Part shown: positions 37,137-55,106 of the stretch, one piece after another
Layout: each line of letters opens with the position of its first letter
Numbering within the stretch: the stretch's first letter is position 1
NCBI GenBank assembly: GCA_034419075.1
Contig: DAOULR010000001.1
Location: 1,766 to 65,765, forward strand
Origin: Dehalococcoidales bacterium
Lineage (GTDB): Bacteria > Chloroflexota > Dehalococcoidia > Dehalococcoidales > BS750m-G39
Direction: 5' to 3'
DNA length: 64,000 bases
Notes under the pieces: model-generated
Database searches by the model: none
The model's input: only the letters and a program-made list of their open reading frames with translations
Told to the model about the DNA's origin: nothing
Translations under genes and position numbers: made by a program

Positions 37137-37173
37137 ACATCTAAATCCCCGCTTTCCTAAGTAAGGCCGAAAC

Positions 37174-38184
37174 CTATTTCCGCCATGGAGCCCTCATTGG
37201 TTCTTTAAGGAATTCCCTCCTCTTCAAGTAGTCCAAGCGCTCTATGCCACCGCAAAGCTCCAGATAGTCCTCAAAGTTATTAACGCTAAAAACATATTTC
37301 TGCAGGTACTCATCCACACCCGGTGCGGTTTTACTCAGCTTGAGCCATTCCGCTATGTGGTCTTCGTCATAGTAATACATCCCGGGCATCTCAGTGGGGT
37401 GTGAGCCATACGGAGCTTCAACAACGGCATCGACGACAAAGAAGGGGATGCTTGTTTTCCAGGGTTCTCCCCGGATAGATTCATTATCTATTATTTCCTC
37501 GGTAGTAATTATTAGTCTCCGAGCGCACCTGGAGAGTTCAAAGTCTTCCACCAAGATGCCATCTATTTGAGCATTACCATATACGTCACAACGGTGGACA
37601 TGGATGAAGGCCACATCAGGATAAGCCGCCGGAATCAGATTGATTGGCTTGCCCGAGAAGGGGTCAGTGACTACCTTGCAACTACTATAACTACCGGTAT
37701 CAGTACCAAGCAGGTTACGACTGGGTATAAAGGGAAGCCCCATCATCGCCGCCAGCCACCGCCATTGGTAGCCGGCGTTGCTGGTTTCGGCAACTACCTT
37801 ACATTGGCCACTCTCTACCATCCTCCTCGAAGCCGGAGATAATCCCCTAAGCTCATGGCCGAAGGAATACGCCACCTCTACCTTATTTACACAGCCTGAA
37901 CCTACTAAAAGGTCAAGGTCATGGACGGCGGTTTTACCAGCCATACTCAGATTACGCTTCTTTTGCCTGATTATCTCGTAAATGATAGACATGGACACTC
38001 TTACGTGCCCGAACCCACCACTAGCGATAAAATCTCCATCATGAACAAATTTAGAGACGGTCTCCTGGGCTGACATGGTTTTATCCTTTAGCTCGCGAGA
38101 CTTGTTTTCAATCACCCATCTTCTAGCCTCATCCGGGTCGTGCCAACCCAAAAGTTCTCCTTTGCCTTCTTTTAGTACCTCCAT
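37174..38184 (-). CDS. family I CoA-transferase alpha subunit (glutaconate CoA-transferase A-like)
   Basis: VHDGDFIASGGF, AAMMGLPFIP, PDVAFIHVHRCD.YGNAQI motifs. Confidence 0.9.
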   Translation of the reverse strand: MEVLKEGKGELLGWHDPDEARRWVIENKSRELKDKTMSAQETVSKFVHDGDFIASGGFGHVRVSMSIIYEIIRQKKRNLSMAGKTAVHDLDLLVGSGCVNKVEVAYSFGHELRGLSPASRRMVESGQCKVVAETSNAGYQWRWLAAMMGLPFIPSRNLLGTDTGSYSSCKVVTDPFSGKPINLIPAAYPDVAFIHVHRCDVYGNAQIDGILVEDFELSRCARRLIITTEEIIDNESIRGEPWKTSIPFFVVDAVVEAPYGSHPTEMPGMYYYDEDHIAEWLKLSKTAPGVDEYLQKYVFSVNNFEDYLELCGGIERLDYLKRREFLKEPMRAPWRK

Positions 38185-38256
38185 CTTCGCCTCCTCAATT
38201 TAAATAACCTAACTCGAGCTAATTATAGCCGGCTCTCCTATCAAAAATACATTTTA

Positions 38257-40407: not shown

Positions 40408-40417
40408 CAGGCGCTAT

Positions 40418-41335
40418 TTACTTCTTTTCTTTGTGCTTGCTTTTTTCCGTTTTCTTGCTCTCTTCAGCAAGCTTCTTGGCGCGTTCCTCATCGTGGAAAA
40501 GGACCTCTTTGCCGGCAAACCATTCTCTGGAGCTGATATTGGCATGCTCCACATTCTTGCAGAAGTCTCCGAACATTTCCGTGCCGAAGGTCATGTCAAG
40601 GTCGTCAACAATGCGCTGCTTCCAAGGTCTTTTAACAACCTGAGCGGTCAGGCGTCTGACGGTGCGGTGCCGGGCCATGATGAAATCGGCGATTTCATAC
40701 GCTCTGGGGATCAACCTGTCGTATGGAACCACTTCGTTTACCAAGCCATATTCCAGACACTGCTGTGCGGTGAGCTTCTGACTCATATACATGGCGTACG
40801 CGGCTCTCCGGATGCCCATAAGCTCAATTAAGCAGCTGTGGATGCCGTCCCCGGGGACGATATCATACAGGAAGTGTGGGTCAGCAATTACGGCATCTTC
40901 GGCCATAATGCAGATATCGCACATCAGCGCCAGTTCGGCGTGTCCGCCGGTCCCGTTCAGCACGCCAATCGTCGGAACCTCTACGTCCTGAATCATGGCG
41001 ATAAGCATCCGGCGACCGTCAATGAACATATGCTCATACCTGGTGTATTCCGGTTCTGTTATCTCCGGCTTCCAGCTTTCGGGCTCGAATTCGATAATCC
41101 AGTCTTTTCCTGTCCCGGTAAAGATTACCAACTCAATGTCAGAGTCGCTGCCTACAGTACGCCACATCTGGCCTATCGCCCGGTGCAGTTCCATACTCCA
41201 TAACTGCGGCCCTCCGTTTGTATGCATCCTGACCAGAAGTACGCCGTCATCGCGCTTTTCCATAATGAAGTGCTCTTTGAACATCTCCTTATAGTCTTCG
41301 TAATTTGGCCACTTCACGAACTTTGTCCGAGGCAT
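40418..41335 (-). CDS. crotonase-fold protein, 6-oxocamphor hydrolase-like beta-diketone hydrolase
   Basis: VLLVRMHTNGG, HAELALMCD, DPHF..IVPGDG, TEMF motifs. Confidence 0.8.
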   Translation of the reverse strand: MPRTKFVKWPNYEDYKEMFKEHFIMEKRDDGVLLVRMHTNGGPQLWSMELHRAIGQMWRTVGSDSDIELVIFTGTGKDWIIEFEPESWKPEITEPEYTRYEHMFIDGRRMLIAMIQDVEVPTIGVLNGTGGHAELALMCDICIMAEDAVIADPHFLYDIVPGDGIHSCLIELMGIRRAAYAMYMSQKLTAQQCLEYGLVNEVVPYDRLIPRAYEIADFIMARHRTVRRLTAQVVKRPWKQRIVDDLDMTFGTEMFGDFCKNVEHANISSREWFAGKEVLFHDEERAKKLAEESKKTEKSKHKEKK

Positions 41336-41441
41336 AATGATTCCTCCTTTATTTTAGGATTTATTTTGGCTCTTGATGGCTCGCTTCTTAAAACCAAGCA
41401 AAGACTTCCCGGTTTAAAAGCTCATACCGCACCGGTTGGAC

Positions 41442-42437
41442 CTATTTTATCTCGTCTTCCTCTTGGCCGCCGTTAATGCGGGGACGGATGACCTTACCCT
41501 TCCTCTCGGCTTTGCGAACCAGGTCGGCTTCTTCGTGAGCCCAGTGCCAGTAATTAACCTCGTGGGGCGAATGCTCGGTGGCGGTGACGTACATCTCGCT
41601 GGCAAAGGAGCCACGCACCTCGTTTGCGATATCTTCCTTCCAGGGCTTGCGGAGTATCTGGGTAGTAATACGCCGGGTTACTCTAGAACCGGTGCACATA
41701 ATGAGCTCAGCGATTTCCCAGGCGCGTTTGTAGCAGGATTCGAGGTCAGGGCAGATCTCATTGACCATACCGAGAGCAAGGGCCTTTCGGGCCGTGATGA
41801 TCTCTCCGGTTAGCTCAGCATAAGCGAATCTCTTGCGGCCCATGAGCTCGCGCCAGGGGATCTGAATGCCGTCACCGGGAACCATGTTGACGCGGAAATG
41901 CATATCCGTCGTCCAGGCATCCTCAGTGCAGAGGGTGATATCGCTTAACAGTACCAGGTCCGTGTGGAAGGCGGCGCCGTTCCAAATCCCGATGGTGGGA
42001 ACCTCAACGTCAAAAATCTGACCTTCTATGTCATTGGTGCCGTCATAGTACTGATATTCATACATCCTCCAGGCCACTTCCGGGTTCGAGGCAAACTCGG
42101 TAGCCGGTTCCCATTTTTGAGTCTTTTCATTGAACTTGCCGATGCCTTTAGTGAAATCCTTGCCCATGCCGCCCAGGATTATGACCTCATTGTCCGGGTC
42201 CCGGCCTGCCCAGTCGAAAAAGTAGTGCAGGGCTTGGTGGTGGGAAGCCCCCCACTGCATGCTGTCGCCGTTGGAATGAAGCCGCGCTTCGAGGATGCCA
42301 TTCTTCCGCTTCATCAGGAGGCAATGCTTGAGCTTTTCCGAGTACTCTTCAAAAGGCACATGGGGAATAGTCCCTATTTCCTCATGCGGCATCTCCTTGC
42401 GCTTTCCAGCATCGGATTCATAATTGGCTCTAATCAT
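41442..42437 (-). CDS. crotonase-fold protein, 6-oxocamphor hydrolase-like beta-diketone hydrolase (paralog)
   Basis: PFEEYSEK, LHSNGDS.QW..SHH, HTDLVLLSD, DMHF..MVPGDG, SEMY motifs. Confidence 0.8.
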   Translation of the reverse strand: MIRANYESDAGKRKEMPHEEIGTIPHVPFEEYSEKLKHCLLMKRKNGILEARLHSNGDSMQWGASHHQALHYFFDWAGRDPDNEVIILGGMGKDFTKGIGKFNEKTQKWEPATEFASNPEVAWRMYEYQYYDGTNDIEGQIFDVEVPTIGIWNGAAFHTDLVLLSDITLCTEDAWTTDMHFRVNMVPGDGIQIPWRELMGRKRFAYAELTGEIITARKALALGMVNEICPDLESCYKRAWEIAELIMCTGSRVTRRITTQILRKPWKEDIANEVRGSFASEMYVTATEHSPHEVNYWHWAHEEADLVRKAERKGKVIRPRINGGQEEDEIK

Positions 42438-42665
42438 TATTTTCTCCCTCCTTTTACTAACTTCACAGGAATTTTTGACCTGCCCTCACTAATGATACCA
42501 CTCTTTAAATAATTATTGACGAAATACACTCTCCTCCTGCAATGTGTCAAGCAACCACAATCCTTCTCAAATCAAAGCTCCGGCGATGCGCTGGGGTTAA
42601 TAGCCAAGCCAAATGAGCTTCCCTAAAGCAACCCAGTACACTGATGCCTACACTACTTTTCTATT

Positions 42666-43967
42666 TTACTGCATTGTGCCGGGTAACCACAGTGCGATTT
42701 GCGGGAGAGCGATGAGGACAGCTATACAAATAGCCTCCGCTATGAGGAACGGGACTATGCTCCGGAATATCTTGCCAACTTTGACATTAATGGCTCCAGA
42801 GAGCAAAAAGGCATCCATCCCCACCGGCGGGGTAACCAGCCCCATTTCTACAAGTATCACCACTATAATCCCAAACCATATCGGGTCAAAGCCGAGGGTA
42901 TGAACAACCAAGGGGAATATAACGGGGATGCTAAGGATAACCGCCGAGATAATGTCCAGGAACATACCCAGAATAATGTAAAGGACAACTACACCCAATA
43001 AAATGAGATAGCGCGAGACTTCCAGCCCGGCAATAAGCTCGCCCATCGCCGTGGTAAGCTGGCTGACGGCAAGGAACTTCATCAGGATATAAGCCCCGAT
43101 GATAAGCAGCATGATCATGGTGGTGGTCTGTGCGGTTTCTAGAATAGCGCTGCGGAACTTCTTGAAGTTAAGACGCCGCATGGAGACAGTGATAAAAAGA
43201 GCGCCGAAGGCACCAACGGCTCCCCCCTCGGTAGGAGTGAAGACCCCCATATAGATACCCCCCAATACCACTATGAACAGGAGCACAGTAGGCCAAGTGA
43301 GTTTCAGCGACACTATCTTCTTCATCCAGCTGGTCTTCGGCCCCGCCGGCCCCGCCTTGGGGTTACGTAGCGTGATAAGAAAGATGGCGAGTGCAAACAA
43401 ACCAGCCAGAAATATTCCCGGGATAAAACCGGCCATATAGAGCTTGCTGATAGAAGTCTCGGTTAGAATGCCGTATATGATGAGCACCACGCTGGGGGGG
43501 ATAAGGAAAGCCAGGCCGCCGGCGCAGGCAATAGAACCAAGCGCCAGATTATCGTCATAATTGTATTTCCTCATCGACGGCAGGGCTACCTTACCCATGG
43601 TGACCAGAGCCGGGGAACTGACGCCGGTGATAGCGGCGAAAGCGGCACAGGCGATAACGGTAGCCATCGCCAGCCCTCCCCGCAACTGTCCCACCCATCT
43701 ATAGGCGGTTTCGTAGAGGTCGGCACCAACCCCCGATTCGAAGAGAACCACCCCCATGAAGATATAGAGTGGGACCGTCGTCATCATGTAGGTAGCCATA
43801 GTGGTGAAGGGAATCAGCGATATTACCCCGCAGGCGGGGTCCCAGCCCCTGATGATGACATAGCCGAAAAAGCCGACCAGGGCCATAGCCGCGCCAACCC
43901 ACATCCGGGCAAAGATAAAGCCCACCAGCACAACCAGCCCGATAGCGCCAATAAGTTCTGGACTCAC
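42666..43967 (-). CDS. dctM: TRAP transporter large permease
   Basis: 433-aa polytopic protein; TVPLYIFMG, LIPPS, TPTEGG, TPPVG motifs. Confidence 0.93.
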   Translation of the reverse strand: MSPELIGAIGLVVLVGFIFARMWVGAAMALVGFFGYVIIRGWDPACGVISLIPFTTMATYMMTTVPLYIFMGVVLFESGVGADLYETAYRWVGQLRGGLAMATVIACAAFAAITGVSSPALVTMGKVALPSMRKYNYDDNLALGSIACAGGLAFLIPPSVVLIIYGILTETSISKLYMAGFIPGIFLAGLFALAIFLITLRNPKAGPAGPKTSWMKKIVSLKLTWPTVLLFIVVLGGIYMGVFTPTEGGAVGAFGALFITVSMRRLNFKKFRSAILETAQTTTMIMLLIIGAYILMKFLAVSQLTTAMGELIAGLEVSRYLILLGVVVLYIILGMFLDIISAVILSIPVIFPLVVHTLGFDPIWFGIIVVILVEMGLVTPPVGMDAFLLSGAINVKVGKIFRSIVPFLIAEAICIAVLIALPQIALWLPGTMQ

Positions 43968-44431
43968 TTCTTAAACGCCTCGGATACTCTCTTAACCAGC
44001 AGCGCTACTATTGATATGGAAAACATAGCCCAGCCCACTGCCATTACCCAATAAAAGGGGGCCTGTGGCACGCTAAGGAGGGAACTGACGTCACTAGAAT
44101 CTATAGCTGCCGGGAAGCTTTGCCAGGTTATGATAGCGAACATGCCCAGGGCAATAAGTAGCGTGATATTGTCAACAATCACCTGAACCCGTCGCGGAAA
44201 TCGATCCATTATAAAGTCTACCTTGATGTGTTTTTCTTCTAGCGCCGCCCATGCCAGCGCTGGAAAAACGATGATTATCATCATTAAACAGGCGAGTTCT
44301 GGGGTACCTAGTATCGGCGAGTTAAAAAAATAACGGCCACAGACATTGGCTGTGACCAGTAGCATCATTACGATTATTACTCCCGCTGATACATAACCCA
44401 TCCACCGGCTTAGCTTGTACAGTATCGTCAT
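43964..44431 (-). CDS. dctQ: TRAP transporter small permease
   Basis: Four TM segments; RYFFNSPI, HIKVDF motifs. Confidence 0.92.
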   Translation of the reverse strand: MTILYKLSRWMGYVSAGVIIVMMLLVTANVCGRYFFNSPILGTPELACLMMIIIVFPALAWAALEEKHIKVDFIMDRFPRRVQVIVDNITLLIALGMFAIITWQSFPAAIDSSDVSSLLSVPQAPFYWVMAVGWAMFSISIVALLVKRVSEAFKK

Positions 44432-44592
44432 TATCTGATCTCCCGACTAGCTCAGGCTAACGATAAACTATCCGCTTTAATAACAATCACCAGCAAGCTG
44501 GAGGGATGAAATGCGGAATAACTTGCCACCAATCCAGGCAATGCGCACCACCCCCCAGCTTGCTAAAGGAGAGACCATGAAGAATATTCTAT

Positions 44593-45633
44593 TTATTCGC
44601 TTAATTCGGCTACTAGCTCCAGAGTCCGGTCATATAGCTCTTGCCCGGGTAGCCCGGCAGCTTCGCAGTCCGCTATCCACTTATCGTGGATTGGCGCCTT
44701 AACCAGGTCACGCCAGACATCTAACTGCTCAGGAGTAAGATAGGTGATGGTATGCCCTTCGACCACAGCCATAGCTTCAACCATGCATATGTCATCCCAG
44801 CTTGTCTGGAACTCCAGCCACTTTGGACCTGAGTCTAAGAGTACCTGCTGAAGGCTATTGGGAAGGCCGTTAAAGAAATCCTTGTTCACAATGACGAACA
44901 TCGGGGTCATGTTAACGCCACTACCGCCGAACACAGTGTGACACTTCAGCACATCCAGCGCCCCGAAGATCCAGCAGACCGGGAAGTGATTGACAACCCC
45001 ATCAACAACTCCTGTCATCAGAGACGGGGTCATCTCCGGTATCGGTATGTCTGACGCTGTGGCGCCAGCTTCCGCTAGTGCCGCAACCGTCATCGCCTCA
45101 GTACTCATGATCCTCAGACCCTGAGCGTCTTCAGGAGTTACCACCACTTTGTCAATGGTGTGGAGGTGCGTCGGGGGCATCATCATAAAACTGAGGATCA
45201 TCAAATTATCATCCCATTCGTCTTCCATCTCGGAAAACTCGTCCATCAGGGTCTGGTAGGCAGCCTCGATGTGCTGTTCGGGCCAGCCCATGAAGGGCAG
45301 TGACATGACAAGGCCCAGCTGGAAACCCTGCTCGCTGTCAATAACGTAGTGGGCAATGTCACAAACGCCGTCTATCGTACCCTGATAAGCCTCGGCGTCA
45401 TTGGCGAGCAAAGCTCCACCATGGATAATATTTATATCAAGTAAGCCCTCACTTTGCTCCTCGACCCATGCTCCCCAATCATCCCAGGCCGCGGCCACGG
45501 TTGACTCCGCCGGATTGTGGTCGTTAACTGTAACCGTGATTGGCCCGGTGATCTCTTCTTCGCAGGCAGTGGCGCACAAAGGCAATGCAATTAACGCCAG
45601 AATTAACAAACCAAAAATTAGAGTCCTTTTCAT
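44593..45633 (-). CDS. dctP: TRAP substrate-binding lipoprotein
   Basis: Lipobox-like ATAC, SLMTGVVDG, VNKDFFNGLP..LQQ motifs; upstream of dctQ-dctM. Confidence 0.88.
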   Translation of the reverse strand: MKRTLIFGLLILALIALPLCATACEEEITGPITVTVNDHNPAESTVAAAWDDWGAWVEEQSEGLLDINIIHGGALLANDAEAYQGTIDGVCDIAHYVIDSEQGFQLGLVMSLPFMGWPEQHIEAAYQTLMDEFSEMEDEWDDNLMILSFMMMPPTHLHTIDKVVVTPEDAQGLRIMSTEAMTVAALAEAGATASDIPIPEMTPSLMTGVVDGVVNHFPVCWIFGALDVLKCHTVFGGSGVNMTPMFVIVNKDFFNGLPNSLQQVLLDSGPKWLEFQTSWDDICMVEAMAVVEGHTITYLTPEQLDVWRDLVKAPIHDKWIADCEAAGLPGQELYDRTLELVAELSE

Positions 45634-45754
45634 CTTTTGCCTCCTAACTATTTAGTGACTTAAAGATAATCCTTTTTTCCTACGATATTTCACCCCCTTC
45701 TCGCTTTAGTGGTGGGAGAGCCGAATTCTCTCCACATATTTTCCTGCCAGCTTG

Positions 45755-45832
45755 TTGCGGTAAGTCTAACAGATATTATATAATATTATAAAAATTGTCA
45801 AGGGGTTGATAATCCATAGCCGTATCAATTTT
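45755..45832 (-). repeat. 78-bp inverted repeat copy 1: promoter/operator module facing the TRAP operon
   Basis: Reverse complement of 49321-49398 with 4 mismatches. Contains TTGACA-17-TAATAT on the minus strand and TTGATA-N11-TATCAA. Confidence 0.92.
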
Positions 45833-45978
45833 TTGTACAAAGTATTCTAGGTACAACTTTAGAGATTGTCAATATCTATATCGGCAATATATAAGGGTGC
45901 CTGCATTCTGCTTGTTGAATGTTGGCTAGAATCTATATTACAATAATAGCCCCAATTAGTTTTGAAAGAGTGTAACAG

Positions 45979-47427
45979 ATGACAGGAATAGGGATCATTG
46001 CTTACGGTGTTCATATACCCCGATATCGGTTAAGCCGTAAGACTATCTCCGAAGCTATGGGCTGGCTGAGCCCTGGAGCCTTACCGGGGGAAAAGGCGGT
46101 GGCTAATTATGATGAGGACAGCCTTACTATGGCTGCCACCGCCGGTTTAGATTGCCTCAAGGAGGTCAACCGGGCCAGGGTTGATAGCCTCTGCTTCGCC
46201 TCCACCACCTTTCCCTATAAGGAGAGAGAGAGCGCCGCTATAATCGCTACAGCCCTTGACCTCAGCCCCAACATACGTACGGCTGACATGGCTAATTCCC
46301 TCAAGGCCGGGACCGAAGCTATCCTCTACGCCGGTGACTCCGTTAAAGCCAAAGGGGCCGGTAATATCTTGGTCTGCGGCGCCGATTACCGTCTGGGCAA
46401 GCCAGGTAGTCCCCAGGAGACAGTCTTCGGGGATGGGGCTGCCGCTTTTCTTCTTGGCAGCAACGGTGTGATTGCCAGCTTGGAGGGCTGGTATTCCACC
46501 TCGTACGATTTTTCGGATTACCGCCGGTCGGAAGGTGATAAATTCGTGCGAGCTGCCGAAGATAGATTCATACGGCAAGCAGGTTACACCAAGTTCATCC
46601 CTGAGGCTATTTCGGGCTTATTAAAGAAGTATAAGCTGGGAACCAAGGACTTTGCCAAAGTAGCTTACCCCTGCCTTAACTTTAGAGAACATGCCGCTAT
46701 AGGGGAAAGGCTGGGCTTTCAGCCGGAACAAATTCAGGAACCTTTGTTTGGCGTGATAGGCGAAACAGGGGTGGCTTCGCCGCTGATTTTGCTGGTGGCT
46801 ATGCTGGAGGAGGCTAAGGCCGGTGATAACATCCTCCTCGCCAGCTATGGAAACGGCGCCGAGGCTCTATTCTTCAAGGTGACCGAAGAGATAGCCAAGC
46901 TAAAGGATAGAGAAAGGCTGAAGAAGTCCCTGGCCGATAGGAGAGAACTAGCCAGCTACGAAAAGTATCTAGCCTTCCGCGGCATAATTCCGGTAGATGT
47001 GGGGGGAGGTGAGGGGGAAGTTGCCCCCACCAAGTTGCCGCTGACATGGAGGGAACGGAAAGCAATCCTGTCGCTTTATGGCTCCAAATGTAAACGCTGC
47101 GGCACTCCCCAGTACCCCCCACAAAGAATCTGCGTCAACCCTGACTGTGGGGCTGTTGATGAGATGGAGGATTACCGCTTCGCCGATAAGAAGGGGGTCG
47201 TTTTCAGTTATACTGCCGATAACGTGGCTTCCTCCATCAGCCCTCCGCTATTATACGGCATGATAGACTTTGAAGGCGGGGGCAGGTTTGTCTTTGAGCT
47301 TGCCGATTGCGATAAGGACTCAATCAGGATAGGTATGCCGGTGGAAATGAGCCTGCGCCGGAAATATATAGATGAGCTACGAGGTATCCATGGCTATTTC
47401 TGGAAGGCGATACCAATAAGAGAGTGA
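45979..47427 (+). CDS. fusion of HMG-CoA-synthase-like domain (no catalytic Cys) and DUF35 Zn-ribbon/OB-fold domain
   Basis: HIPRYRL, DEDSLTMA, NSLKAGT (in place of ACKAG), SYGNGAEA; C-terminal CKRCG..YPPQRIC..PDC and GMPVEM. Confidence 0.85.
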   Translation: MTGIGIIAYGVHIPRYRLSRKTISEAMGWLSPGALPGEKAVANYDEDSLTMAATAGLDCLKEVNRARVDSLCFASTTFPYKERESAAIIATALDLSPNIRTADMANSLKAGTEAILYAGDSVKAKGAGNILVCGADYRLGKPGSPQETVFGDGAAAFLLGSNGVIASLEGWYSTSYDFSDYRRSEGDKFVRAAEDRFIRQAGYTKFIPEAISGLLKKYKLGTKDFAKVAYPCLNFREHAAIGERLGFQPEQIQEPLFGVIGETGVASPLILLVAMLEEAKAGDNILLASYGNGAEALFFKVTEEIAKLKDRERLKKSLADRRELASYEKYLAFRGIIPVDVGGGEGEVAPTKLPLTWRERKAILSLYGSKCKRCGTPQYPPQRICVNPDCGAVDEMEDYRFADKKGVVFSYTADNVASSISPPLLYGMIDFEGGGRFVFELADCDKDSIRIGMPVEMSLRRKYIDELRGIHGYFWKAIPIRE

Positions 47428-47446
47428 TAAGTAAGAGGGAGCAGAA

Positions 47447-48658
47447 ATGCCAGAGGGGATAAAGGACAAGGTTGCCATCATAGGGATGGGGTGTACTAAA
47501 TTTGGCGAGCTTTGGGATAAGAGCGCCGAGGATTTGATGGTTGAAGCCTTTGAGGAAGCCCTTGAAGATGCTGGGATAGAGAAGAAAGATATTCAGGCAG
47601 CCTGGCAGGGCAACCAGTTCACCGAGGTCAATATAGGACACAGTGCCATCCCCTTGGCTACTACCCTTAAGCTACCCTTCATCCCGGTAACACGCGTCGA
47701 AAACCTGTGCGCCAGTGGTACGGAGGCCCTTAGAGCCGCCTGTTACGCTGTTGCCTCAGGCGCCTGCGATATCGCTCTGGCTCTTGGGGTGGAAAAGATT
47801 AAGGATCTGGGCTTCGGGGGTCTTCCCAGGGCTAACGAGGACATAGTGTCCCTCGGCACTAGGGGGAGAGTCATCTTCCCCAACTGGGTTAACCCCAACC
47901 CGGGAATGTTTGCCATGATGGCTAACAGGTATTTCGAGCGGTATGGTCTCAGCATCGAAGAGGGCAAGACAACACTGGCTAAGGTATCCGTCAAAAGCCA
48001 CCACAACGGCTCTATGAACCCCAAGGCCCACCTCCGCCGAGAAATCACCGTGGAAGATGTGCTAAAGGCCCCCATCATCGCCTGGCCTCTAGGCCTGTTC
48101 GACGCCTGTGGTGTAAGTGACGGGTCAGCGGCGGCCATCTTGGTGCGAGCCGATATGGCCAAGAATTTTAGGCCCGACCCGGTTTACATCAAGGCCCTCC
48201 AGGTTGCCGCTGAGTCTGGGGAAAGCCTGTTATACACCGATTATGATTATACTCATGTGGAGACAACCCGCCGCGCCGCTGCCAAGGCTTACCAGGAAGC
48301 CGGCGTTAAGAATCCGCGGGAAGAAATCAGCATGATAGAAGCCCATGACTGTTTCTCCATAACCGAGATGGTTACCTACGAAGACCTGATGATATCTCCC
48401 CCGGGGAAGGCCAAGGAGGATATTGACTCTGGTTTCTTTGAGCTTGATGGCAAGATTCCCTGCCAGCCCGATGGCGGTCTAAAGTGCTTTGGTCATCCCA
48501 TCGGTGCCTCAGGACTCAGGATGCTATATGAAATGTACAAACAGCTTCAAGGCAAAGCGGGGGAAAGACAGGTAAAGAATCCCCGGTTGGGACTCACCCA
48601 CAACCTGGGCGGCCAGCCACCCCTAAGTGTATGCAGTGTCTGTGTCGTAGGTCTTTAG
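47447..48658 (+). CDS. thiolase, SCP2/archaeal-type acetyl-CoA acetyltransferase-like
   Basis: VENLCASG (Cys), EAHDCF, DGGLKCFGHPIGASG motifs. Confidence 0.92.
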   Translation: MPEGIKDKVAIIGMGCTKFGELWDKSAEDLMVEAFEEALEDAGIEKKDIQAAWQGNQFTEVNIGHSAIPLATTLKLPFIPVTRVENLCASGTEALRAACYAVASGACDIALALGVEKIKDLGFGGLPRANEDIVSLGTRGRVIFPNWVNPNPGMFAMMANRYFERYGLSIEEGKTTLAKVSVKSHHNGSMNPKAHLRREITVEDVLKAPIIAWPLGLFDACGVSDGSAAAILVRADMAKNFRPDPVYIKALQVAAESGESLLYTDYDYTHVETTRRAAAKAYQEAGVKNPREEISMIEAHDCFSITEMVTYEDLMISPPGKAKEDIDSGFFELDGKIPCQPDGGLKCFGHPIGASGLRMLYEMYKQLQGKAGERQVKNPRLGLTHNLGGQPPLSVCSVCVVGL

Positions 48659-48695
48659 GTCCTTAAGAGAAATGAGGTAAGGGCGAAGGGAGACT

Positions 48696-48716
48696 TGAAG
48701 TGAAGCTCAGCGGTAA
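48696..48716 (+). repeat. duplicated 5' end of the downstream SDR gene
   Basis: TGAAGTGAAGCTCAGCGGTAA versus TGAAATGAAGCTCAGCGGTAA at 49594-49614 (20/21 identical). Confidence 0.8.
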
Positions 48717-48752
48717 TGAGGGCGTGCCTACCGAACCTCGGCATGTTGGCTA

Positions 48753-49265
48753 TCACTCCTCACTTTTGAAATCAACAAACTGATTAACTAGGTGCTTTCT
48801 AATCTTCCTTAAAGAAGCTGTTAACATCTGCACTTCCTCTTCACCCATTGTAGGCATAGCCGAATTCATAACCTCTAGAGTGTCTGGTAGGCTTGTTCTA
48901 ATTAATTCTAATCCCCTTTTGGTGACGATGATCCTTTTAGTCCTACGGTCTTGGCCGACTAATTCCCTTTTCACCAAACCGTCTCTCTCGAGGACATCAA
49001 TGATCTGGGTAATAGTCTGTTTGGACCGGAGTAACATCCTGCTTAAATCTGTCGGCTTCATTACCCCGCCGTGTATTATCAACGTATGCATGATATCAAA
49101 TCGGCTCCGGTTCTGGCCGATTGTCCTTGCTTTCGCAGTTATATACTTATCCAAGAGCCAGCCAGCATTGAGAAGTTGAACAACTAGTCTAAATCTCAAA
49201 TTATCACCTATCGCTCTAATATCCTCAGCTAAAGATGCCAAGTCGCCGTTGAATTTATCAGTCAT
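48753..49265 (-). CDS. MarR-family transcriptional regulator
   Basis: TITQIIDVLERDGLVKR..GQDRRTKRIIVTKRG winged-helix signature. An AGGAG RBS supports ATG 49265. Confidence 0.92.
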   Translation of the reverse strand: MTDKFNGDLASLAEDIRAIGDNLRFRLVVQLLNAGWLLDKYITAKARTIGQNRSRFDIMHTLIIHGGVMKPTDLSRMLLRSKQTITQIIDVLERDGLVKRELVGQDRRTKRIIVTKRGLELIRTSLPDTLEVMNSAMPTMGEEEVQMLTASLRKIRKHLVNQFVDFKSEE

Positions 49266-49320
49266 TGTATGTCTCCTTAGATTAACTGATTCCGTACTAT
49301 TCAATACACAATTTTAAAGC

Positions 49321-49398
49321 AAAATTGATACGGCTATGAATTATCAACCCCTTGACAATTCTTATATTATTATATAATATCTGTTAGACTTAGCGCAA
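49321..49398 (+). repeat. 78-bp inverted repeat copy 2: promoter/operator module facing the SDR operon
   Basis: TTGACA 49352-49357, TAATAT 49375-49380, TTGATA-N11-TATCAA 49325-49347. Confidence 0.92.
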
Positions 49399-49597
49399 TA
49401 TCAAGTTAGAAATTCAGGGACCCAGTGAAATCTGGGCAAACCGTATCACATCGCTAGCTGTTTTGCAAGTGGTGAAGAGTTTTCGATGGGCTTGGAGGTT
49501 AAGGCGATACCGGGCAAGAAGATAATGGCAGAAACAAGGTTGTTGCTGGAAGTTCTGCCTAGTTTCAGAAACGGTACTTAAGAAAGGGGAAGCTGAA

Positions 49598-50359
49598 ATG
49601 AAGCTCAGCGGTAAGGTAGCCGTTGTTACCGGCAGCAGCCGAGGGATAGGCAAAGCTATTGCCATAGGTTTGGCCAAGGAAGGTGCCAAGGTCGTTGTTG
49701 CCGCTCGAGCGGAAACAGAAAACGAAAAGTTACCGGGGACGATATACAAAACGGCCGACGAAATCCAGGCCTCGGGAGGCTCGGCACTGCCAATAAAGTG
49801 TGACGTGACTGACGAGCAGAGCGTCAATGATATGGTGCAAAAAGCTCTGGCGGAATTTGGCCGCCTGGATATTCTGGTCAACAACGCCGCGGTTGCCTTT
49901 TATTATCCGGTAATAGAAACGCCCCTGAAGCGCTGGGAACTGGTGCTGAGGGTTGGCTTAACTGGTGCCTTTCTCTGCTCAAAAGCAGTCCTGCCTAAAA
50001 TGATAGAACAAAAGAGTGGCAGCATCATTAACATCTCCTCGCTGGCGGCCGACCAGCGGGTTCTCAGAGAGGTCTCTACGGGTGTGGCCTATGCCGTCAC
50101 CAAAGCTGGACTCGACCGCTTCACCCGGGGTCTAGCCGCCGAGGTGGGGTGGTATAATATTGCCGCCAATGCCGTCAAGCCGGCGGGAGTAGTCGATACG
50201 GAGGGGATGAGATTATGGCAGCCGAATGCAGATAAGTCACGGTGGGAGCCGCCGGACCGGATGGTAAAAGTGGTAATTTTCTTGGCCGGACAGGATGCTA
50301 AAGGTGTTACCGGTGTCGTCGCCACCGATGAAGAATTTTGTGTCTGGCACGGACTATAA
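49598..50359 (+). CDS. short-chain dehydrogenase/reductase (SDR)
   Basis: VTGSSRGIG, LVNNAA, NISS, YAVTK (YxxxK) motifs. Confidence 0.95.
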   Translation: MKLSGKVAVVTGSSRGIGKAIAIGLAKEGAKVVVAARAETENEKLPGTIYKTADEIQASGGSALPIKCDVTDEQSVNDMVQKALAEFGRLDILVNNAAVAFYYPVIETPLKRWELVLRVGLTGAFLCSKAVLPKMIEQKSGSIINISSLAADQRVLREVSTGVAYAVTKAGLDRFTRGLAAEVGWYNIAANAVKPAGVVDTEGMRLWQPNADKSRWEPPDRMVKVVIFLAGQDAKGVTGVVATDEEFCVWHGL

Positions 50360-50375
50360 TAGAGAGGACTTTTAG

Positions 50376-51869
50376 ATGGCAATTAAAACACCGCAGGAGT
50401 ATATCGAGAGTATCAGGGATGACCGCGTGGTCTACTATCTCGGGGAGAGGGTCAAAGACGTTACCCAGCACCCTTTTCTGAAGATTTGTATTGACTGGAT
50501 GGCTACAGACTATGTCCTCTCGAATGACCCCCGATACCAGAGCCTACTCACCGAAAAAGATGAAGACGGTGAACTGGTGCCCTTCATCCTGAGTGCCCAG
50601 AAAAGCCGGGAAGACCTGCTCCGGCTGAGGGATATAGTGAAACTCATGGCCAGGGTTTGCTACGGCAAGCCGTCCGGGGCTAAGTTCGTGGGCAAGGATG
50701 GGCTGAATGCCGTGACCGTGGTCTCACAGCGCGTCGACAAGAAATACGGCACACACTATGCCAAAAACGTTGAGGCATATCGCCAATACCTGCAGAAAAA
50801 CGACCTATCCCTGGCCATGGGAATGACCGACGTCAAGGGCGACCGGAGCCTGCGTCCCTCAAAGCAACAGCCCCACCAGGACTATTATGTCCACATAGTC
50901 GACGAGCGTAAAGACGGAATCGTGGTCAGAGGGGCTAAGATGCACATCAGCGAGGCCCCCCTTTCCAACGAGATAATCGTTGTGCCCTGCCGGGCGATGC
51001 AGGAGGATGACAAGGACTACGCTGTTTCCTTCGGCATTAATGCCGATGCCAAGGGCATTACTATGGTCAGCCCTGAAGCAGAAACCAATGAGCCGGGTAA
51101 TTTCTTTGACCATCCCATCACTGCCAGCGTCTATATTAATGATGCCCTCATCGCCTTTGACGACGTATTTATACCTAATGAAAGAATATTTTTGAAGAGG
51201 GAATGGGAGTTCGCTGGCGATATCGCCTATATGTTCGGCGATTTTCATCGCCTCAGTGCCGAGACCTACAAAGCGGCCGAACTTGAAATCCTTACCGGCG
51301 CCGCCGTGTTGATGGCTGAATACAACGGGATTGACCAAGCCTCACACGTTAAGGAAAAACTCACTTGGCTAGCGCAATATACTGAGGCAGTTGAAATTCT
51401 GGGCAGCGCTGCCTGCGAACATTGTGTATCCGAACCTGATTCTGACCTAGTCTATCCCAACCCGATGATCGCCAACATATGCAAGCTCTACTTCGCCGAT
51501 AACTGGCACCAGGCTACCAAGTACGTTCAGGATATTGCCGGGGGTATCGTGGCCACCGTTCCCTCAGCCAAGGACTGGCAGAACCCGGTGACGCACAAAC
51601 TAATGGAAAAATACTTCGGCGGTAAGGAGGGCATTCCTACCGAACACAGGCTCAAGGTTATAAAGCTGATAAAAGATTCTACCTCTGTCTACGAAGACGT
51701 GCTCACTATTCATGCCGAGGGTTCCCCGGCGGCGCAGAAGCTTTCTATATACTCCTTGGCCGATTTTGAAAGGTATAAGGCAGCAGCCAAGAGAGCCGCC
51801 AGGATTAAGGACGGAACGGAACACCCCATCTTTAGCCAACTGCCAGAGTTCCCCCCAGGGATAGCCTAA
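50376..51869 (+). CDS. 4-hydroxybutyryl-CoA dehydratase (AbfD)/HpaB-family flavoprotein lacking the Fe-S cysteines
   Basis: MTDVKGDRSLRPS, GIVVRGAKMH, FDDVFIPNERIF, DIAGG, HAEGSPAAQ motifs. Confidence 0.85.
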   Translation: MAIKTPQEYIESIRDDRVVYYLGERVKDVTQHPFLKICIDWMATDYVLSNDPRYQSLLTEKDEDGELVPFILSAQKSREDLLRLRDIVKLMARVCYGKPSGAKFVGKDGLNAVTVVSQRVDKKYGTHYAKNVEAYRQYLQKNDLSLAMGMTDVKGDRSLRPSKQQPHQDYYVHIVDERKDGIVVRGAKMHISEAPLSNEIIVVPCRAMQEDDKDYAVSFGINADAKGITMVSPEAETNEPGNFFDHPITASVYINDALIAFDDVFIPNERIFLKREWEFAGDIAYMFGDFHRLSAETYKAAELEILTGAAVLMAEYNGIDQASHVKEKLTWLAQYTEAVEILGSAACEHCVSEPDSDLVYPNPMIANICKLYFADNWHQATKYVQDIAGGIVATVPSAKDWQNPVTHKLMEKYFGGKEGIPTEHRLKVIKLIKDSTSVYEDVLTIHAEGSPAAQKLSIYSLADFERYKAAAKRAARIKDGTEHPIFSQLPEFPPGIA

Positions 51870-51918
51870 TTCGGCCCGTGACTTGTTTGGTTATTTTTTG
51901 ATTGGAGGAGGAAAGCCA

Positions 51919-52779
51919 ATGGAAATCAAGAAAGTCGGTGTGGTCGGTTGCGGGTTGATGGGTAGTGGTATCGCCCAGGTCTGTGCCCAATCAGGCTACC
52001 AAGTAGTGGTCTCGGAAATAAACGATGACCTGCTGAATAAAGGGCTGGCATCAATCAATGCCCGGCTGGCTAAAAGTGTGGAAAAGGGGAAGCTCTCCGC
52101 TGAGGAAAGGGACAAAGCCCTCAACCGCATTAAAGGCACTACCAATAGTCAGGACTTCTCTGACTGCGGTCTAGTAATAGAAGCCATTATTGAGAAGGTG
52201 GAGCCGAAGAGGAAGGTATTTGCCAAGCTGGATAAAATATGCCCCAAAGATACCATCCTAGCTACGAATACGTCGGTCTTATCCATAATTGAAATCGCCG
52301 AGGCAACTAAGCGGCCGGACAAGGTGCTGGGGCTGCACTTCTTTAACCCGGTGCCAGTCATGGAACTGGTAGAGGCAATCAAGACCATCGCCACCAGTGA
52401 AGATACTCTTAGAATTGGCACTGAATTCGTTAAGTCCTTGGGAAAGACGGCCATTATCGCCAAGGATACTCCGGGCTTTGTGGTCAACCGCCAGCTGGAA
52501 CCTTTCCTAAACAATGCTATCCGCATGCTGGAAGACGGCGTTGCCACCAGGGAAGACATCGATGCCGGCGTAAAGCTGGGGCTAAATCACCCCATCGGCC
52601 CTCTAGAGCTGGCCGATTTAATTGGCCTGGACACCGTTTACTTTGGCGCCATTGACATGTATGATAAATTCAAAGAGCCCCAATATGCCCCGCCCGTTCT
52701 GCTGGGCAAGATGGTTGCCGCCGGCTGGCTGGGGCGTAAGACCGGAAAAGGCTTTTACGATTACGAAAAACCGGCCTGA
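51919..52779 (+). CDS. 3-hydroxyacyl-CoA (3-hydroxybutyryl-CoA) dehydrogenase
   Basis: VGVVGCGLMGSGIA, ATNTS, GLHFFNPVPVM, HPIGPLEL.D, GRKTGKGFYDY motifs. Confidence 0.95.
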   Translation: MEIKKVGVVGCGLMGSGIAQVCAQSGYQVVVSEINDDLLNKGLASINARLAKSVEKGKLSAEERDKALNRIKGTTNSQDFSDCGLVIEAIIEKVEPKRKVFAKLDKICPKDTILATNTSVLSIIEIAEATKRPDKVLGLHFFNPVPVMELVEAIKTIATSEDTLRIGTEFVKSLGKTAIIAKDTPGFVVNRQLEPFLNNAIRMLEDGVATREDIDAGVKLGLNHPIGPLELADLIGLDTVYFGAIDMYDKFKEPQYAPPVLLGKMVAAGWLGRKTGKGFYDYEKPA

Positions 52780-52839
52780 GTACGGATTAGGTTAGGGTTA
52801 GGGGCATCTTAACGACACCGGGAGTTCTTAAGGTGAGCT

Positions 52840-54360
52840 ATGGAAGCATTTTTTTGGTGGACTGATGAGCAGAAAAAACTGGCTGTCGAAGCCAGGGAGT
52901 TTGTCGATGACCTGATGCCCAGGGCTGAGGAGGCTTCCTGGAAGAAAGAGTTTCCCCGGGACATCGCTGATCGCATCGCCGGTAGAGGGTACTTCGGGGT
53001 TGGCATAGCCAAGGAGAACGGGGGTATGGGGCTGGGTATAACCGGGACCTGCATTGTTAACGAGGAGGTCAGCCGTATGCCGGCTTTGGGACCCGGTATA
53101 TTCACCTCGGCTATGCTGGGAGGGGTTCATCAGATTACCGAGTTCGGCACCGCTGAGCAGAAGGCCAGATTCTTAGCCAGGGTGGCTAAGGGGGAGCTGG
53201 GGGCAGTCGCTCTTACCGAGCCCTTTGTCGGTACCGATGCCGCTGGCATTGAGACTACCGCCCGGCGTGATGGCGACCGGTATATAATCAACGGCAAGAA
53301 GAGGTTCGTGACCGGAGCCGGCACCGCCAGCCGGTACATGCTCTACGCCCGGACCAGTGATGACGCCGAAGCTGTACGCCACAACCGCCACCTTACCGGC
53401 TTCATCGTGGAAAAGGGGATGCCCGGCTTCACTATAGAAAAAATAAACGAACTGATTGCCCTGGATAATATTCACAACGGCTATCTGAACCTGGATGAGG
53501 TGTCGGTGCCGGCAGATAACCGTGTCGGAGATGAGGGCCAGGGCTGGCAGATAATGATGTCGGGGCTTAACTATGAACGGTTAATCTGTGCTACACTGGC
53601 GGTTGGCGGCTTTCGCGAACTGCTTAAAAGCGTGGTTTCCTACGGGCAAAGGCGCGTCCAGTTCGGCCAGCCGACGATAAATATTACCACCAACCAGTTC
53701 AAGATTGCCGACATGCTCACGGAACTTAAGCTGGCCAGACTAGCCACCTACTACGCCGCCCACCTTATGGATTCGGGGCAGCCAGCGGTGGTAGAAGCCT
53801 CTATTGCCAAGCTCTACGGTGCTGATATGCTCATGCAAGCCAGCGTGGAGGCGACTCAGGTGATGGGGGGAGATGGTGCTACCAAATTCTATCCCCTGGA
53901 TAGAATAATGAGGGAGGCCAAGACGGCTCAGATAGCCGGCGGCACCAGCGAGGCGATGAAGCTCCTTATTTACCGGATGGGACTAAGAGAAATGGCCGAA
54001 GAGCTGAAGATGCCGCACCGGGTCATCCACGAGGAGCTGGGGGTGCCTATGCCGACAGCGGAGCCGGCTAAACAACACCAGATTGATGACGATAAGCTGC
54101 TGGGGGTGCTGGCCGAAGACTACCGGGTCAACCCAGGTCTGTACATGAGCCGGGAGGACTTGAAAGCGCGGTTTGACGTGGAGGATAAAGAATTAGACCG
54201 GGTACTGGTATCTCTGGAAGAGAAAGGGCTGGTTAAGCTGTACCGGAGGCGCGGTGCGATTGAGCTGGCTAAGGCGACCTACCAAGGGCTGAAGAAGGCT
54301 AATTCAGCAGAATACTACCGGTGGTTCCCACCGAGGGTCAGAAAAGAAGATATTTTCTAG
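52840..54360 (+). CDS. acyl-CoA dehydrogenase with a ~110-aa C-terminal winged-helix-like extension
   Basis: ALTEPFVGTDA, INGKKRFVT, NYERL, FGQP, QVMGGDG, AGGTSE motifs, then an extra domain. Confidence 0.9.
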   Translation: MEAFFWWTDEQKKLAVEAREFVDDLMPRAEEASWKKEFPRDIADRIAGRGYFGVGIAKENGGMGLGITGTCIVNEEVSRMPALGPGIFTSAMLGGVHQITEFGTAEQKARFLARVAKGELGAVALTEPFVGTDAAGIETTARRDGDRYIINGKKRFVTGAGTASRYMLYARTSDDAEAVRHNRHLTGFIVEKGMPGFTIEKINELIALDNIHNGYLNLDEVSVPADNRVGDEGQGWQIMMSGLNYERLICATLAVGGFRELLKSVVSYGQRRVQFGQPTINITTNQFKIADMLTELKLARLATYYAAHLMDSGQPAVVEASIAKLYGADMLMQASVEATQVMGGDGATKFYPLDRIMREAKTAQIAGGTSEAMKLLIYRMGLREMAEELKMPHRVIHEELGVPMPTAEPAKQHQIDDDKLLGVLAEDYRVNPGLYMSREDLKARFDVEDKELDRVLVSLEEKGLVKLYRRRGAIELAKATYQGLKKANSAEYYRWFPPRVRKEDIF

Positions 54361-54375
54361 AGAAGCGGCATAGGG

Positions 54376-54410
54376 CCGGAAAAGGCTTTTACGATTGCGA
54401 AAGACCCGCA
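54376..54410 (+). pseudogene. remnant 3' end of a 3-hydroxyacyl-CoA dehydrogenase gene
   Basis: Encodes GKGFYDCERPA* versus GKGFYDYEKPA*. 21-bp exact match to 52742-52762. Confidence 0.7.
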
Positions 54411-54434
54411 TAAAGATAGGAGGGCTTTAGACAT

Positions 54435-55106
54435 ATGTCGGAAACAGGGGAATACAAGGAACTTCTAAAAAGACTGGAAAAAGCCGAAAAAAACGCCCAG
54501 ATAGCCAGAGATTGGGTTGAGATTTCTAATCTGCACGGACGTTATAATCACCTTTGTTTAGGCCACTATTGGGAAAAAATCTGCGATGAGCTTTTTGCCA
54601 AGAAGACCCCCGGGGTCAAGGCAGAGATAGTTGAGAGCGGTGTTTTCCACGGCATTGAGGGCGTCAAAAAGGTTTTTATAGAGATGCTGGGCAAGCTCTA
54701 TAACTACGAAGGGAACTGCGCCATCCACGAGCTGACGACGCCGGTTATTCAGATACAACCGGATATGAAAACAGCCAAAGGGATGTGGTTCCATATCGGG
54801 CTTAACACATTTCTTGATCCGGTCAAGGGCGTGATTCCCATATGGCAAGTTATAAAATACAACCATATCTTCGTTAAAGAAGACGGACAGTGGAAGTTCT
54901 GGGACTACCGGGCTCATCTGATGCTACGCAGTTCCTACGAAAAGGCATGGGTTGAAGAACCAGTTATTCAGGGTAGTACTATCAAGGGCGCCAAGGAAGC
55001 CGAAGCGCCCAAACCCGATGAGCCGACCAGTTTCCATCAGCCCTACCCCGGGAAGAAAGGATACTGGGCAGGCCTGCCACTGCCACCGGAATACATTGAC
55101 CTTTAG
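54435..55106 (+). CDS. SnoaL-like / NTF2-family protein
   Basis: EISNLHGRY, IHELTTPVI, KYNHIFVKEDGQWKFW motifs. Confidence 0.85.
   Translation: MSETGEYKELLKRLEKAEKNAQIARDWVEISNLHGRYNHLCLGHYWEKICDELFAKKTPGVKAEIVESGVFHGIEGVKKVFIEMLGKLYNYEGNCAIHELTTPVIQIQPDMKTAKGMWFHIGLNTFLDPVKGVIPIWQVIKYNHIFVKEDGQWKFWDYRAHLMLRSSYEKAWVEEPVIQGSTIKGAKEAEAPKPDEPTSFHQPYPGKKGYWAGLPLPPEYIDL

Follow-up and report, generated by a model that had tools for sequence, protein, structure and literature searches.

Two old inverted copies of a predicted promoter/operator flank a marR cassette in a Dehalococcoidales genome and its relatives

How does one locus come to carry the same promoter twice, facing outward from both ends of a group of genes, and why have the two copies stayed nearly identical? 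The question is raised by a 64-kb stretch of DNA from a Dehalococcoidales bacterium (contig DAOULR010000001.1; the whole stretch is called the window, and positions are counted from its first letter), in which two arms at 45755-45832 and 49321-49398 form an inverted repeat around genes for an HMGCS-like/DUF35 fusion protein, a thiolase, and a MarR-family regulator. A first-pass annotation of these letters took the pair for a recent promoter duplication that puts two operons under one regulator, and it allowed that the enclosed cassette might invert. In the analysis reported here, the arms appear to be two copies of one complete promoter/operator, plausibly placing a TRAP transporter operon on the left and an SDR/HpaB-family operon on the right under the MarR protein encoded between them. 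To judge from comparison with related genomes, the duplication is old and its identity is held by purifying selection. We consider it likely, as the best explanation of the whole, that a MarR-targeted promoter/operator is native on the right, where it arrived with an inserted module, that it was later copied to the left, and that both copies are old and constrained.

The repeat search gave two inverted arms of 78 nt, 95% complementary and with 3488 nt between them, and a direct comparison counted 74 identical positions of 78, in exact runs of 18, 21, 5, 25, and 5 nt; the coordinates and the identity given by the first-pass annotation were reproduced. When a 68-nt core pattern was searched with up to three mismatches, two sites were found in the window and none was expected from 100 shuffles; three sub-patterns of the arm likewise matched just the two arm sites. 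A promoter scan also recovered the outward TTGACA-17-TAATAT element that had been read in each arm, on the minus strand at 45801..45773 toward dctP and on the plus strand at 49352..49380 toward the SDR gene. The right arm (the S arm, 49321..49398, plus strand), which appears to be the native promoter/operator of the marR module, reads toward the SDR operon and includes TTGATA (49325-49330), TATCAA (49342-49347), the -35 box TTGACA (49352-49357), the -10 box TAATAT (49375-49380), and a predicted start at about 49387. The left arm (the T arm, 45755..45832, minus strand), which would be the secondary copy, reads toward dctP, with a palindrome at 45806-45828 followed by the -35 (45801-45796) and -10 (45778-45773) boxes. 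The coding sequences downstream are not paralogous (DctP, PF03480, versus SDR, PF00106), and the homology stops within about 15 nt of the arm.

The pair does not appear to be an artefact of assembly. An independent assembly of the region (L001, a 13.7 kb Logan contig from run SRR14802572) is 100% identical to the window over 13.7 kb, both arms included, and the arms share no exact stretch of at least 31 bases, which argues against collapse or mis-joining of copies by the assembler. As far as the available data go, this explanation is refuted.

Relatives were collected by a protein search with MarR, the homologues of which formed a graded series of identity. Contigs encoding MarR proteins 90-93% identical to that of the window (L002, L003/L004, and L006) keep its gene order, and a fifth syntenic genome, L102, was recovered via DctP. 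Both arms are carried by these four metagenomic relatives and the window, and shorter contigs (L005, L016-L018, and L103) show the S arm only. Neighbouring genes of the syntenic relatives differ from those of the window by 0.26-0.94 synonymous substitutions per synonymous site (dS), with nucleotide identities of 78-92%; by this measure the five arm-bearing genomes are clearly different lineages. In every one of them, the inverted pair occupies the same two intergenic sites, as a repeat of 93 nt (87% identity) in L002, 82 nt (96%) in L003/L004, 77 nt (94%) in L006, and 78 nt in L102.

Across 12 arms, 57 of the 78 positions are invariant; the -35 box is unchanged in all 12 and the -10 box is retained or, as with TATCAT in the T arm of L002, improved. 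Arms are 91-97% identical to their orthologues, and the intergenic DNA on either side about 62-88%. When the window is compared with L003 or L006, identity is 95-97% in the arms and 62-86% in the remaining intergenic DNA, which is rich in insertions and deletions. Fisher tests of this contrast between arm and flank gave p values of 4e-10 (L003) and 3e-7 (L006) for the T arm and of 0.008 (L003) and 0.002 (L006) for the S arm; with the closer relative L002, the contrast was not significant (arm 91%, flanks 86%, p = 0.17). The differences among arms also bear on their age. With the divergent L002 left out, the mean number of differences is 2.0 among T arms and 3.5 among S arms; for T against S arms it is 4.75 within a genome and 5.1 between genomes. 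The T arm of the window differs at two positions from that of L006 and at one from that of L102, but at four from its own S arm, and arm position 47 is A in all T arms and T in all S arms of the syntenic cluster (5/5 genomes). Since the arms group by type and not by genome, the duplication is older than the split of these lineages and the copies have not been homogenised.

These comparisons leave little of the claim that the duplication is recent. If the copies had arisen in the window genome itself, their 95% identity would come from youth and not from constraint, and the high identity with sharp borders would suit such an origin. However, the copies are orthologously placed in five genomes with flanking dS of 0.26-0.94, arms of one type in different genomes resemble each other more than the two arms of a single genome do, T and S arms keep a fixed difference, and a coding divergence of 14-20% excludes that the relatives are the same strain; a recent origin is scarcely credible. 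Gene conversion between the arms, by which concerted evolution rather than selection on each base would maintain the near-identity, has some points in its favour in L002, where a derived T stands at position 4 of the T and S arms alike and where the 93-nt repeat extends the homology by 14 nt (P<0.001). The hints of exchange are confined to this genome, though, and T-specific and S-specific states persist across all genomes. The distance between T and S arms is no smaller within genomes than between them, and conversion leaves unexplained the 6-10-fold lower divergence of orthologous arms relative to their flanks. Gene conversion is therefore considered unlikely as the main cause, and purifying selection on an old duplication is preferred.

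What might be under selection is suggested by the layout of the arm, AAAA-TTGATA-CGGCTATGAAT-TATCAA-CCCC-TTGACA-17 nt-TAATAT-CTGTTAGACTTACCGCAA. It includes two overlapping dyads, TTGATA-N11-TATCAA and ATTATCAA-N4-TTGACAAT (symmetric at 7 of 8 half-site positions), which abut or overlap the -35 box. The half-sites are invariant across the arms, and variation is seen in the 4-nt spacer, at its first base, and in the promoter spacer. The marR gene, on the minus strand, is divergent from the S arm and 55 nt from it. Other MarR homologues of about 62% identity occupy other gene contexts and were used for the operator comparison only. One of these paralogues (L009, 62% protein identity) has TTGACT-N11-AGTCAA-N4-TTGACA-17-TATATT at a similar distance from its own marR. 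At the level of sequence, this shared layout with complementary changes in both half-sites is the strongest argument for a dyad operator. The arm also accompanies marR at an unrelated locus (L019/L020) and is not found in any marR-less relative of the cluster. A literature search for the half-site sequences together with MarR returned nothing relevant. Because of the conservation, the dyad architecture, and the linkage of arm and marR in another context, we infer that the two operons may answer to one regulator. Of the first-pass claim to this effect, the two copies of one promoter/operator stand as observed in the letters, and the shared control by MarR is kept as a conditional reading.

The linkage of arm and regulator becomes clearer from the right side of the cassette, where the 3' end of the thiolase gene is followed by a scar. 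Directly behind the thiolase stop lies a decayed relic of the SDR start (48686..48733, plus strand), with a ribosome-binding site (RBS) and the first ~11 codons, in which ATG has become GTG. It is 75% identical to the functional RBS and SDR start at 49584..49631 (plus strand), and the similarity of the two within the window is significant (P<=5e-4). In a relative without marR (L022, thiolase 89% identical), the genes for an HMGL-like protein, HMGCS-DUF35, thiolase, SDR, the HpaB-family protein, 3-hydroxyacyl-CoA dehydrogenase, and acyl-CoA dehydrogenase are co-directional, with a 101-nt spacer between thiolase and SDR, and the relic stretches of L016 and L102 align to this native spacer (55 nt, P<=5e-4). 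Neither the arm nor this marR was found in any of 80 thiolase-homologue loci from GTDB. The relic and the continuous layout of L022 indicate that the 5' end of the SDR gene received an insertion of about 850 bp, with a target duplication of 48-65 nt. The inferred module (48734..49583) is bounded by these direct repeats, the relic being the left target copy, and includes marR, a spacer, the S arm, and a leader.

The segment at 48736-49536 of the window is found again in two independent metagenomes, L019 and L020, at a locus unrelated to the present one, with marR DNA 93% identical and MarR protein 90% identical. There (L019:2068-3333; L020:583-1848), marR, the arm, and the leader have a YggS-like gene on the marR side and, on the other, four tRNA genes (Phe, Gly, Leu, and Gln) followed by an MFS transporter gene, and the left border of the segment lies within 3 nt of that in the window. 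The arm keeps TTGATA, TATCAA, the -35 box (as TTGACG), and CTGTTA, and its 11-nt half-site spacer differs from the cluster consensus. The recurrence of the module together with marR argues that this marR has its native target promoter in the S arm. The arm promoter at this second locus points through the tRNA cluster, antisense to the tRNAs, toward the MFS transporter gene.

The module has been trimmed differently by lineage, in the relic, in a 57-nt block between marR and the arm, and in about 100 nt of the leader. The long 5' leader of the SDR operon (49399..49583, plus strand) is conserved at about 49412-49536; this stretch of about 130 nt is shared by the window, L016-L018 (L016:750-971; L018:1-208), L019/L020 (L019:2400-2633), and L102 (L102:6002-6213), and it is cleanly deleted in L002, L003, and L006. 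A riboswitch or small RNA in the arms or the SDR leader was considered and rejected, with no Rfam match at E<=1 and a leader fold z of -0.5. In an alignment fold of the leader, the covariation term was positive with one compensatory pair, and RNA structure was rejected for lack of support; no conserved small open reading frame (ORF) was found in the leader stretch. L002, L016-L020, and L102 contain the block of about 57 nt that separates marR from the arm, and the window (49266-49320), L003, and L006 lack it, the S intergenic regions compared being L002:1805-2088, L016:754-1155, and L102:6002-6404. Imperfect direct repeats (TATCAATACGCAAGTGT / TATTAAATACACAATTGT) border the block and suggest that it was lost by repeat-mediated deletion. 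The element ATACGCAAG(T/C)GTTTT beside marR, possibly part of the marR promoter, is conserved even in paralogues of 62% identity.

The regulator itself is unusual in its divergence. Among the window and homologues (L002, L003, L006, L102, L016, L019, L015, L007, L009, and L012), marR shows dN/dS of 0.24-1.0, and family members of 62-69% identity have dS of just 0.25-0.77. The central 360 nt of marR are almost identical among lineages, and between L003 and L016 this part has 0 synonymous and 12 non-synonymous differences. An antisense gene inside marR was examined as a cause of the low dS and rejected: its stop-free frame of 131-141 codons matches synonymous-codon shuffles (mean 79-91, P 0.04-0.15), and its wobble positions coincide with those of marR and hence put no constraint on them. 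One possibility is a recent horizontal spread of the module combined with rapid change of the protein. It is tentatively conceivable, and no stronger claim is made, that the ~850-bp unit of marR, divergent promoter/operator, and leader forms an autonomous regulatory cassette, able to travel from locus to locus and from genome to genome and to rewire its landing site, and that its promoter/operator part can propagate separately. If so, separate propagation would account for the T arm, and a recent horizontal spread, with the regulator quickly re-tuned, would lie behind the low marR dS and the family-wide dN/dS of 0.3-0.7.

The left arm copies the promoter/operator part alone, over 78 nt (93 nt in L002) and with sharp borders. 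Its flanks have no significant similarity to those of the S arm save for 14 nt in L002, and a 67%-identical dctPQM set in another context is without the arm and without marR. Upstream of the arm, a second promoter-like site, P2 (45844..45872, minus strand; TTGACA-17-TAGAAT, 11/12), is conserved in all five T intergenic regions, with a predicted start a few bases before the arm. The palindrome of the T arm would lie at about +5 to +27 relative to this start. The T arm may be a later, inverted copy of the S promoter/operator, placed just downstream of an older dctP promoter.

Inverted repeats that flank a gene cassette could also mark a switch, as the first-pass annotation had considered: recombination between the arms would flip the 3.5-kb segment and produce phase variation. 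Such an inversion would be nearly silent and hence tolerable. However, a single orientation is seen in 5/5 two-arm genomes, and in the further contigs marR always adjoins the S arm. The longest exact identity between the arms is 25 nt, roughly the shortest that RecA-dependent exchange accepts. The 20 long ORFs (>=183 aa) scanned at 36357-59295 gave no match to a recombinase, integrase, or invertase domain, in agreement with the absence of an invertase noted before. The earlier remark that inversion would leave the outward promoters unchanged is borne out by the anatomy, since the promoters lie inside the arms and face outward, and their output would not depend on the orientation of the interior. 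An invertible cassette is therefore very improbable. The arms might instead be copies of a miniature inverted-repeat transposable element (MITE) or Correia-like element, or the terminal repeats of a composite transposon that carries the three enclosed genes. Promoter-bearing short repeats are known in other bacteria (PMC3575422), and the marR module does occur in two unrelated contexts. Against this, the 64 kb of the window contain two arms, as do the 10-21 kb of each relative, and their sites never differ; exact-pattern scans of 185,579 GTDB genomes and the JGI metagenome collection gave 0 matches, the relatives found by protein search evidently lying outside both collections. The scanned ORFs include no transposase, and neither a target-site duplication around the pair nor flank homology is seen; around the individual arms there is no direct repeat or flank homology either, and the sole target duplication (48-65 nt) flanks the whole marR module. 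Moreover, HMGCS-DUF35/thiolase has the same neighbours in the marR-less L022. A mobile element is accordingly judged highly improbable, and a MITE in particular is refuted as far as the available data go by two fixed copies at orthologous sites.

A further alternative accepts the arms as functional promoters and doubts the regulator: they could work under a factor other than MarR or under none, with conservation arising from contacts of RNA polymerase, another regulator, or DNA structure. Conservation extends to the AT-rich spacer and to the first ~11 bases of the transcript, which need not follow from MarR binding alone, and the half-site spacing is atypical. On the other hand, the arm co-occurs with this marR at an unrelated locus and is absent from marR-less relatives of the cluster, and the dyad co-varies in the paralogue, so that control without MarR appears rather doubtful. 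Several further observations weigh against a MarR-targeted pair with an old, selected left copy. The half-sites are 17 bp apart from centre to centre, wider than the typical single-dimer sites in solved MarR-DNA complexes, which leaves the precise operator uncertain; the other dyad, of 20 bp, overlaps the -35 box, and that box would be conserved in any case. L015, with a 69%-identical MarR, has no detectable arm, and a by-eye alignment there was not significant (P = 0.43). The dS of marR is only 0.05-0.15, versus 0.26-0.94 for its neighbours, and part of the S-arm conservation could therefore be recent shared ancestry of the module; the T arm escapes this objection, being 3.4 kb distant and set between flanks that have diverged. 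The route by which the T arm was copied left no target duplication and no flank homology, and the search for further copies in the source DNA covered the 64-kb window.

With MarR-targeted promoters still preferred, a proposed history and mechanism of the locus can be potentially described as follows. The co-directional operon of HMGCS-DUF35, thiolase, SDR, HpaB-family, 3-hydroxyacyl-CoA dehydrogenase, and acyl-CoA dehydrogenase genes may have received the ~850-bp module in the 5' end of its SDR gene. The insertion would have duplicated the target of 48-65 nt, split the operon, and placed its distal half behind a MarR-controlled promoter. Both this insertion and the copying to the T side precede the divergence of at least five related lineages, after which the 78-bp core has been kept near-invariant by purifying selection. 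As far as can be deduced from the sequence, each arm would act as a sigma-70-type promoter with an operator that is the target of the MarR encoded between them. Dimers of MarR would bind the TTGATA-N11-TATCAA and ATTATCAA-N4-TTGACAAT dyads and repress both outward promoters, and at the T-arm palindrome they would also block P2. MarR would be released by an effector, probably the carboxylate that is taken up or a CoA thioester from the pathway, and uptake and catabolism would be induced together.

The genes of the locus are compatible with the identities first given to them, with one correction. Pfam confirmed the three enclosed genes as the HMGCS-like/DUF35 fusion (45979-47427, plus strand; a KAS-III/HMGCS-like part joined to a ChsH2 zinc-ribbon/OB part), the thiolase (47447-48658, plus strand), and marR (48753..49265, minus strand). 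The last encodes 170 aa with a MarR/MarR_2 winged helix, starts at the ATG at 49265 and not at the TTG at 49304, and has the RBS AAGGAGA. Its domain matches exceed the gathering cut-offs (PF12802, 1.6e-10; PF01047, 4.1e-8); no close characterised homologue was found, the best PDB and NCBIfam matches having E values of ~1e-9 and scores well short of the family cut-offs. A promoter-like site for the HMGCS-DUF35/thiolase pair lies outside the repeat (45915..45944, plus strand; TTGAAT-18-TACAAT). Pfam and NCBIfam support the genes of a putative operon behind the T arm (36357..45633, minus strand), with dctP (44593-45633), dctQ (43964-44431), dctM (42666-43967), two crotonase-family genes (41442-42437 and 40418-41335), a molybdopterin oxidoreductase gene (38257-40407), and genes for CoA-transferase subunits (37174-38184 and 36357-37136). 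Behind the S arm, the putative operon (49598..55106, plus strand) encodes an SDR (49598-50359), a flavoprotein of the HpaB/4-hydroxybutyryl-CoA-dehydratase family (50376-51869), a 3-hydroxyacyl-CoA dehydrogenase (51883-52779), an acyl-CoA dehydrogenase (52840-54360), and a SnoaL_4 protein (54435-55106). The earlier naming of the flanking operons holds for the TRAP (DctPQM) side and for the SDR/HpaB-family side; the label 'hydrolase' does not, the genes in question being of crotonase fold (ECH_1).

The acyl-CoA dehydrogenase gene (52840-54360) is not at the equivalent place in L003, L006, and L102 and is present in the marR-less L022, and the second crotonase gene (40418-41335) is not in L002 and L003 and is present in L102. 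Therefore, the gene content of both operons varies among close relatives. The HMGCS-DUF35/thiolase pair also occurs alone in a metagenome-assembled genome (MAG) labelled Dehalococcoidia in GTDB (L021:181-3080; JASFEJ010000097.1), where it is 86% identical in DNA to 45958-48657 of the window and has a tRNA-like gene on one side and PlsY-family (G3P_acyltransf), rhomboid, and other genes on the other. From this standalone pair it appears that HMGCS-DUF35/thiolase is itself a portable two-gene unit and that the cluster of the window is a mosaic. In the 5' leader of dctP, a G+C-rich hairpin (GGGAGAGCCGAATTCTCTCC) at 45714-45733 is conserved in L002 and L102 and replaced in L003 and L006; its terminator-like flag is on the plus strand, opposite to dctP. 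Two oxidoreductases of about 700 aa, which combine parts of the OYE/FMN and FAD/NAD(P) types (2,4-dienoyl-CoA-reductase/BaiCD-like), are encoded at 31026-33125 and 55162-57249. The second adjoins an HMGL-like gene, and in L022 an HMGL-like gene is directly upstream of HMGCS-DUF35. The GTDB loci nearest by thiolase are labelled as MAGs of Dehalococcoidia and Deltaproteobacteria.

Compared with known systems, the locus is a well-documented case that fits ordinary promoter reuse combined with MarR logic; it shows no new mechanism and is not a DNA switch. As with the MarR repressors (E. coli MarR/marRAB, MexR, OhrR, MepR, and HucR), a winged-helix gene is divergent from its putative target operon, dyads abut or overlap the -35/-10 region, and the targets include a transporter and catabolic enzymes. 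Unlike in those systems, a second near-full-length copy of the promoter, and not just an operator of ~20 bp, would serve a second operon here; the half-sites are 17 bp apart, the regulator has no close characterised homologue, and the putative operator is known from its letters. In invertible switches such as fimS, hin, and the Bacteroides invertons, it is the invertible segment that contains the promoter, the repeats serve as short sites for a recombinase, and the gene for this enzyme is close by. The present locus resembles them in that inverted repeats flank a DNA segment, but here the outward promoters are the repeats themselves, no recombinase is encoded in the scanned ORFs, and no second orientation was seen. 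Correia elements, ERIC, and REPIN are multi-copy, have terminal inverted repeats of their own, and are polymorphic between strains. They too are short repeated intergenic DNA able to carry a promoter, whereas the repeat described here exists as two fixed copies at orthologous sites.

The closest parallel is given by putative mobile promoters. A survey of promoter reuse (Matus-Garcia, Nijveen & van Passel 2012), as presented in a commentary (PMC3575422), used criteria of at least 80% identity over at least 50 nt and counted more than 4000 families, mostly pairs, with a mean identity of 92% and located upstream of unrelated genes. According to the same commentary, the authors left open whether selection or recent duplication is the cause of the identity. 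The arm pair falls within these criteria of identity and length, with 74 of 78 nt identical upstream of unrelated genes in one genome. It fits the concept but not the range of -150 to -50 from the start codon in which the survey worked: the T arm lies at -122 to -199 from the dctP ATG, and the S arm, outside that range, at -200 to -277 from the SDR ATG. In contrast to the survey families, the cause of the identity is answerable for this pair, the duplication being old and, to judge from its conservation, selected, and the source of the copy can be identified as the target promoter of the inserted marR module. Therefore, the locus gives a single-case answer to the question of promoter reuse, in that its near-identical upstream regions are old and appear constrained.

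The locus also keeps the scars by which a regulon may have been assembled, as a module split an operon and its promoter/operator was then copied before a transporter operon. If its effector becomes known, the 78-bp promoter/operator could serve as a sensor part. For the organisms themselves, the finding offers a candidate two-operon MarR regulon in uncultured anaerobes, the nearest relatives of which are MAGs of Dehalococcoidia and Desulfobacterota.

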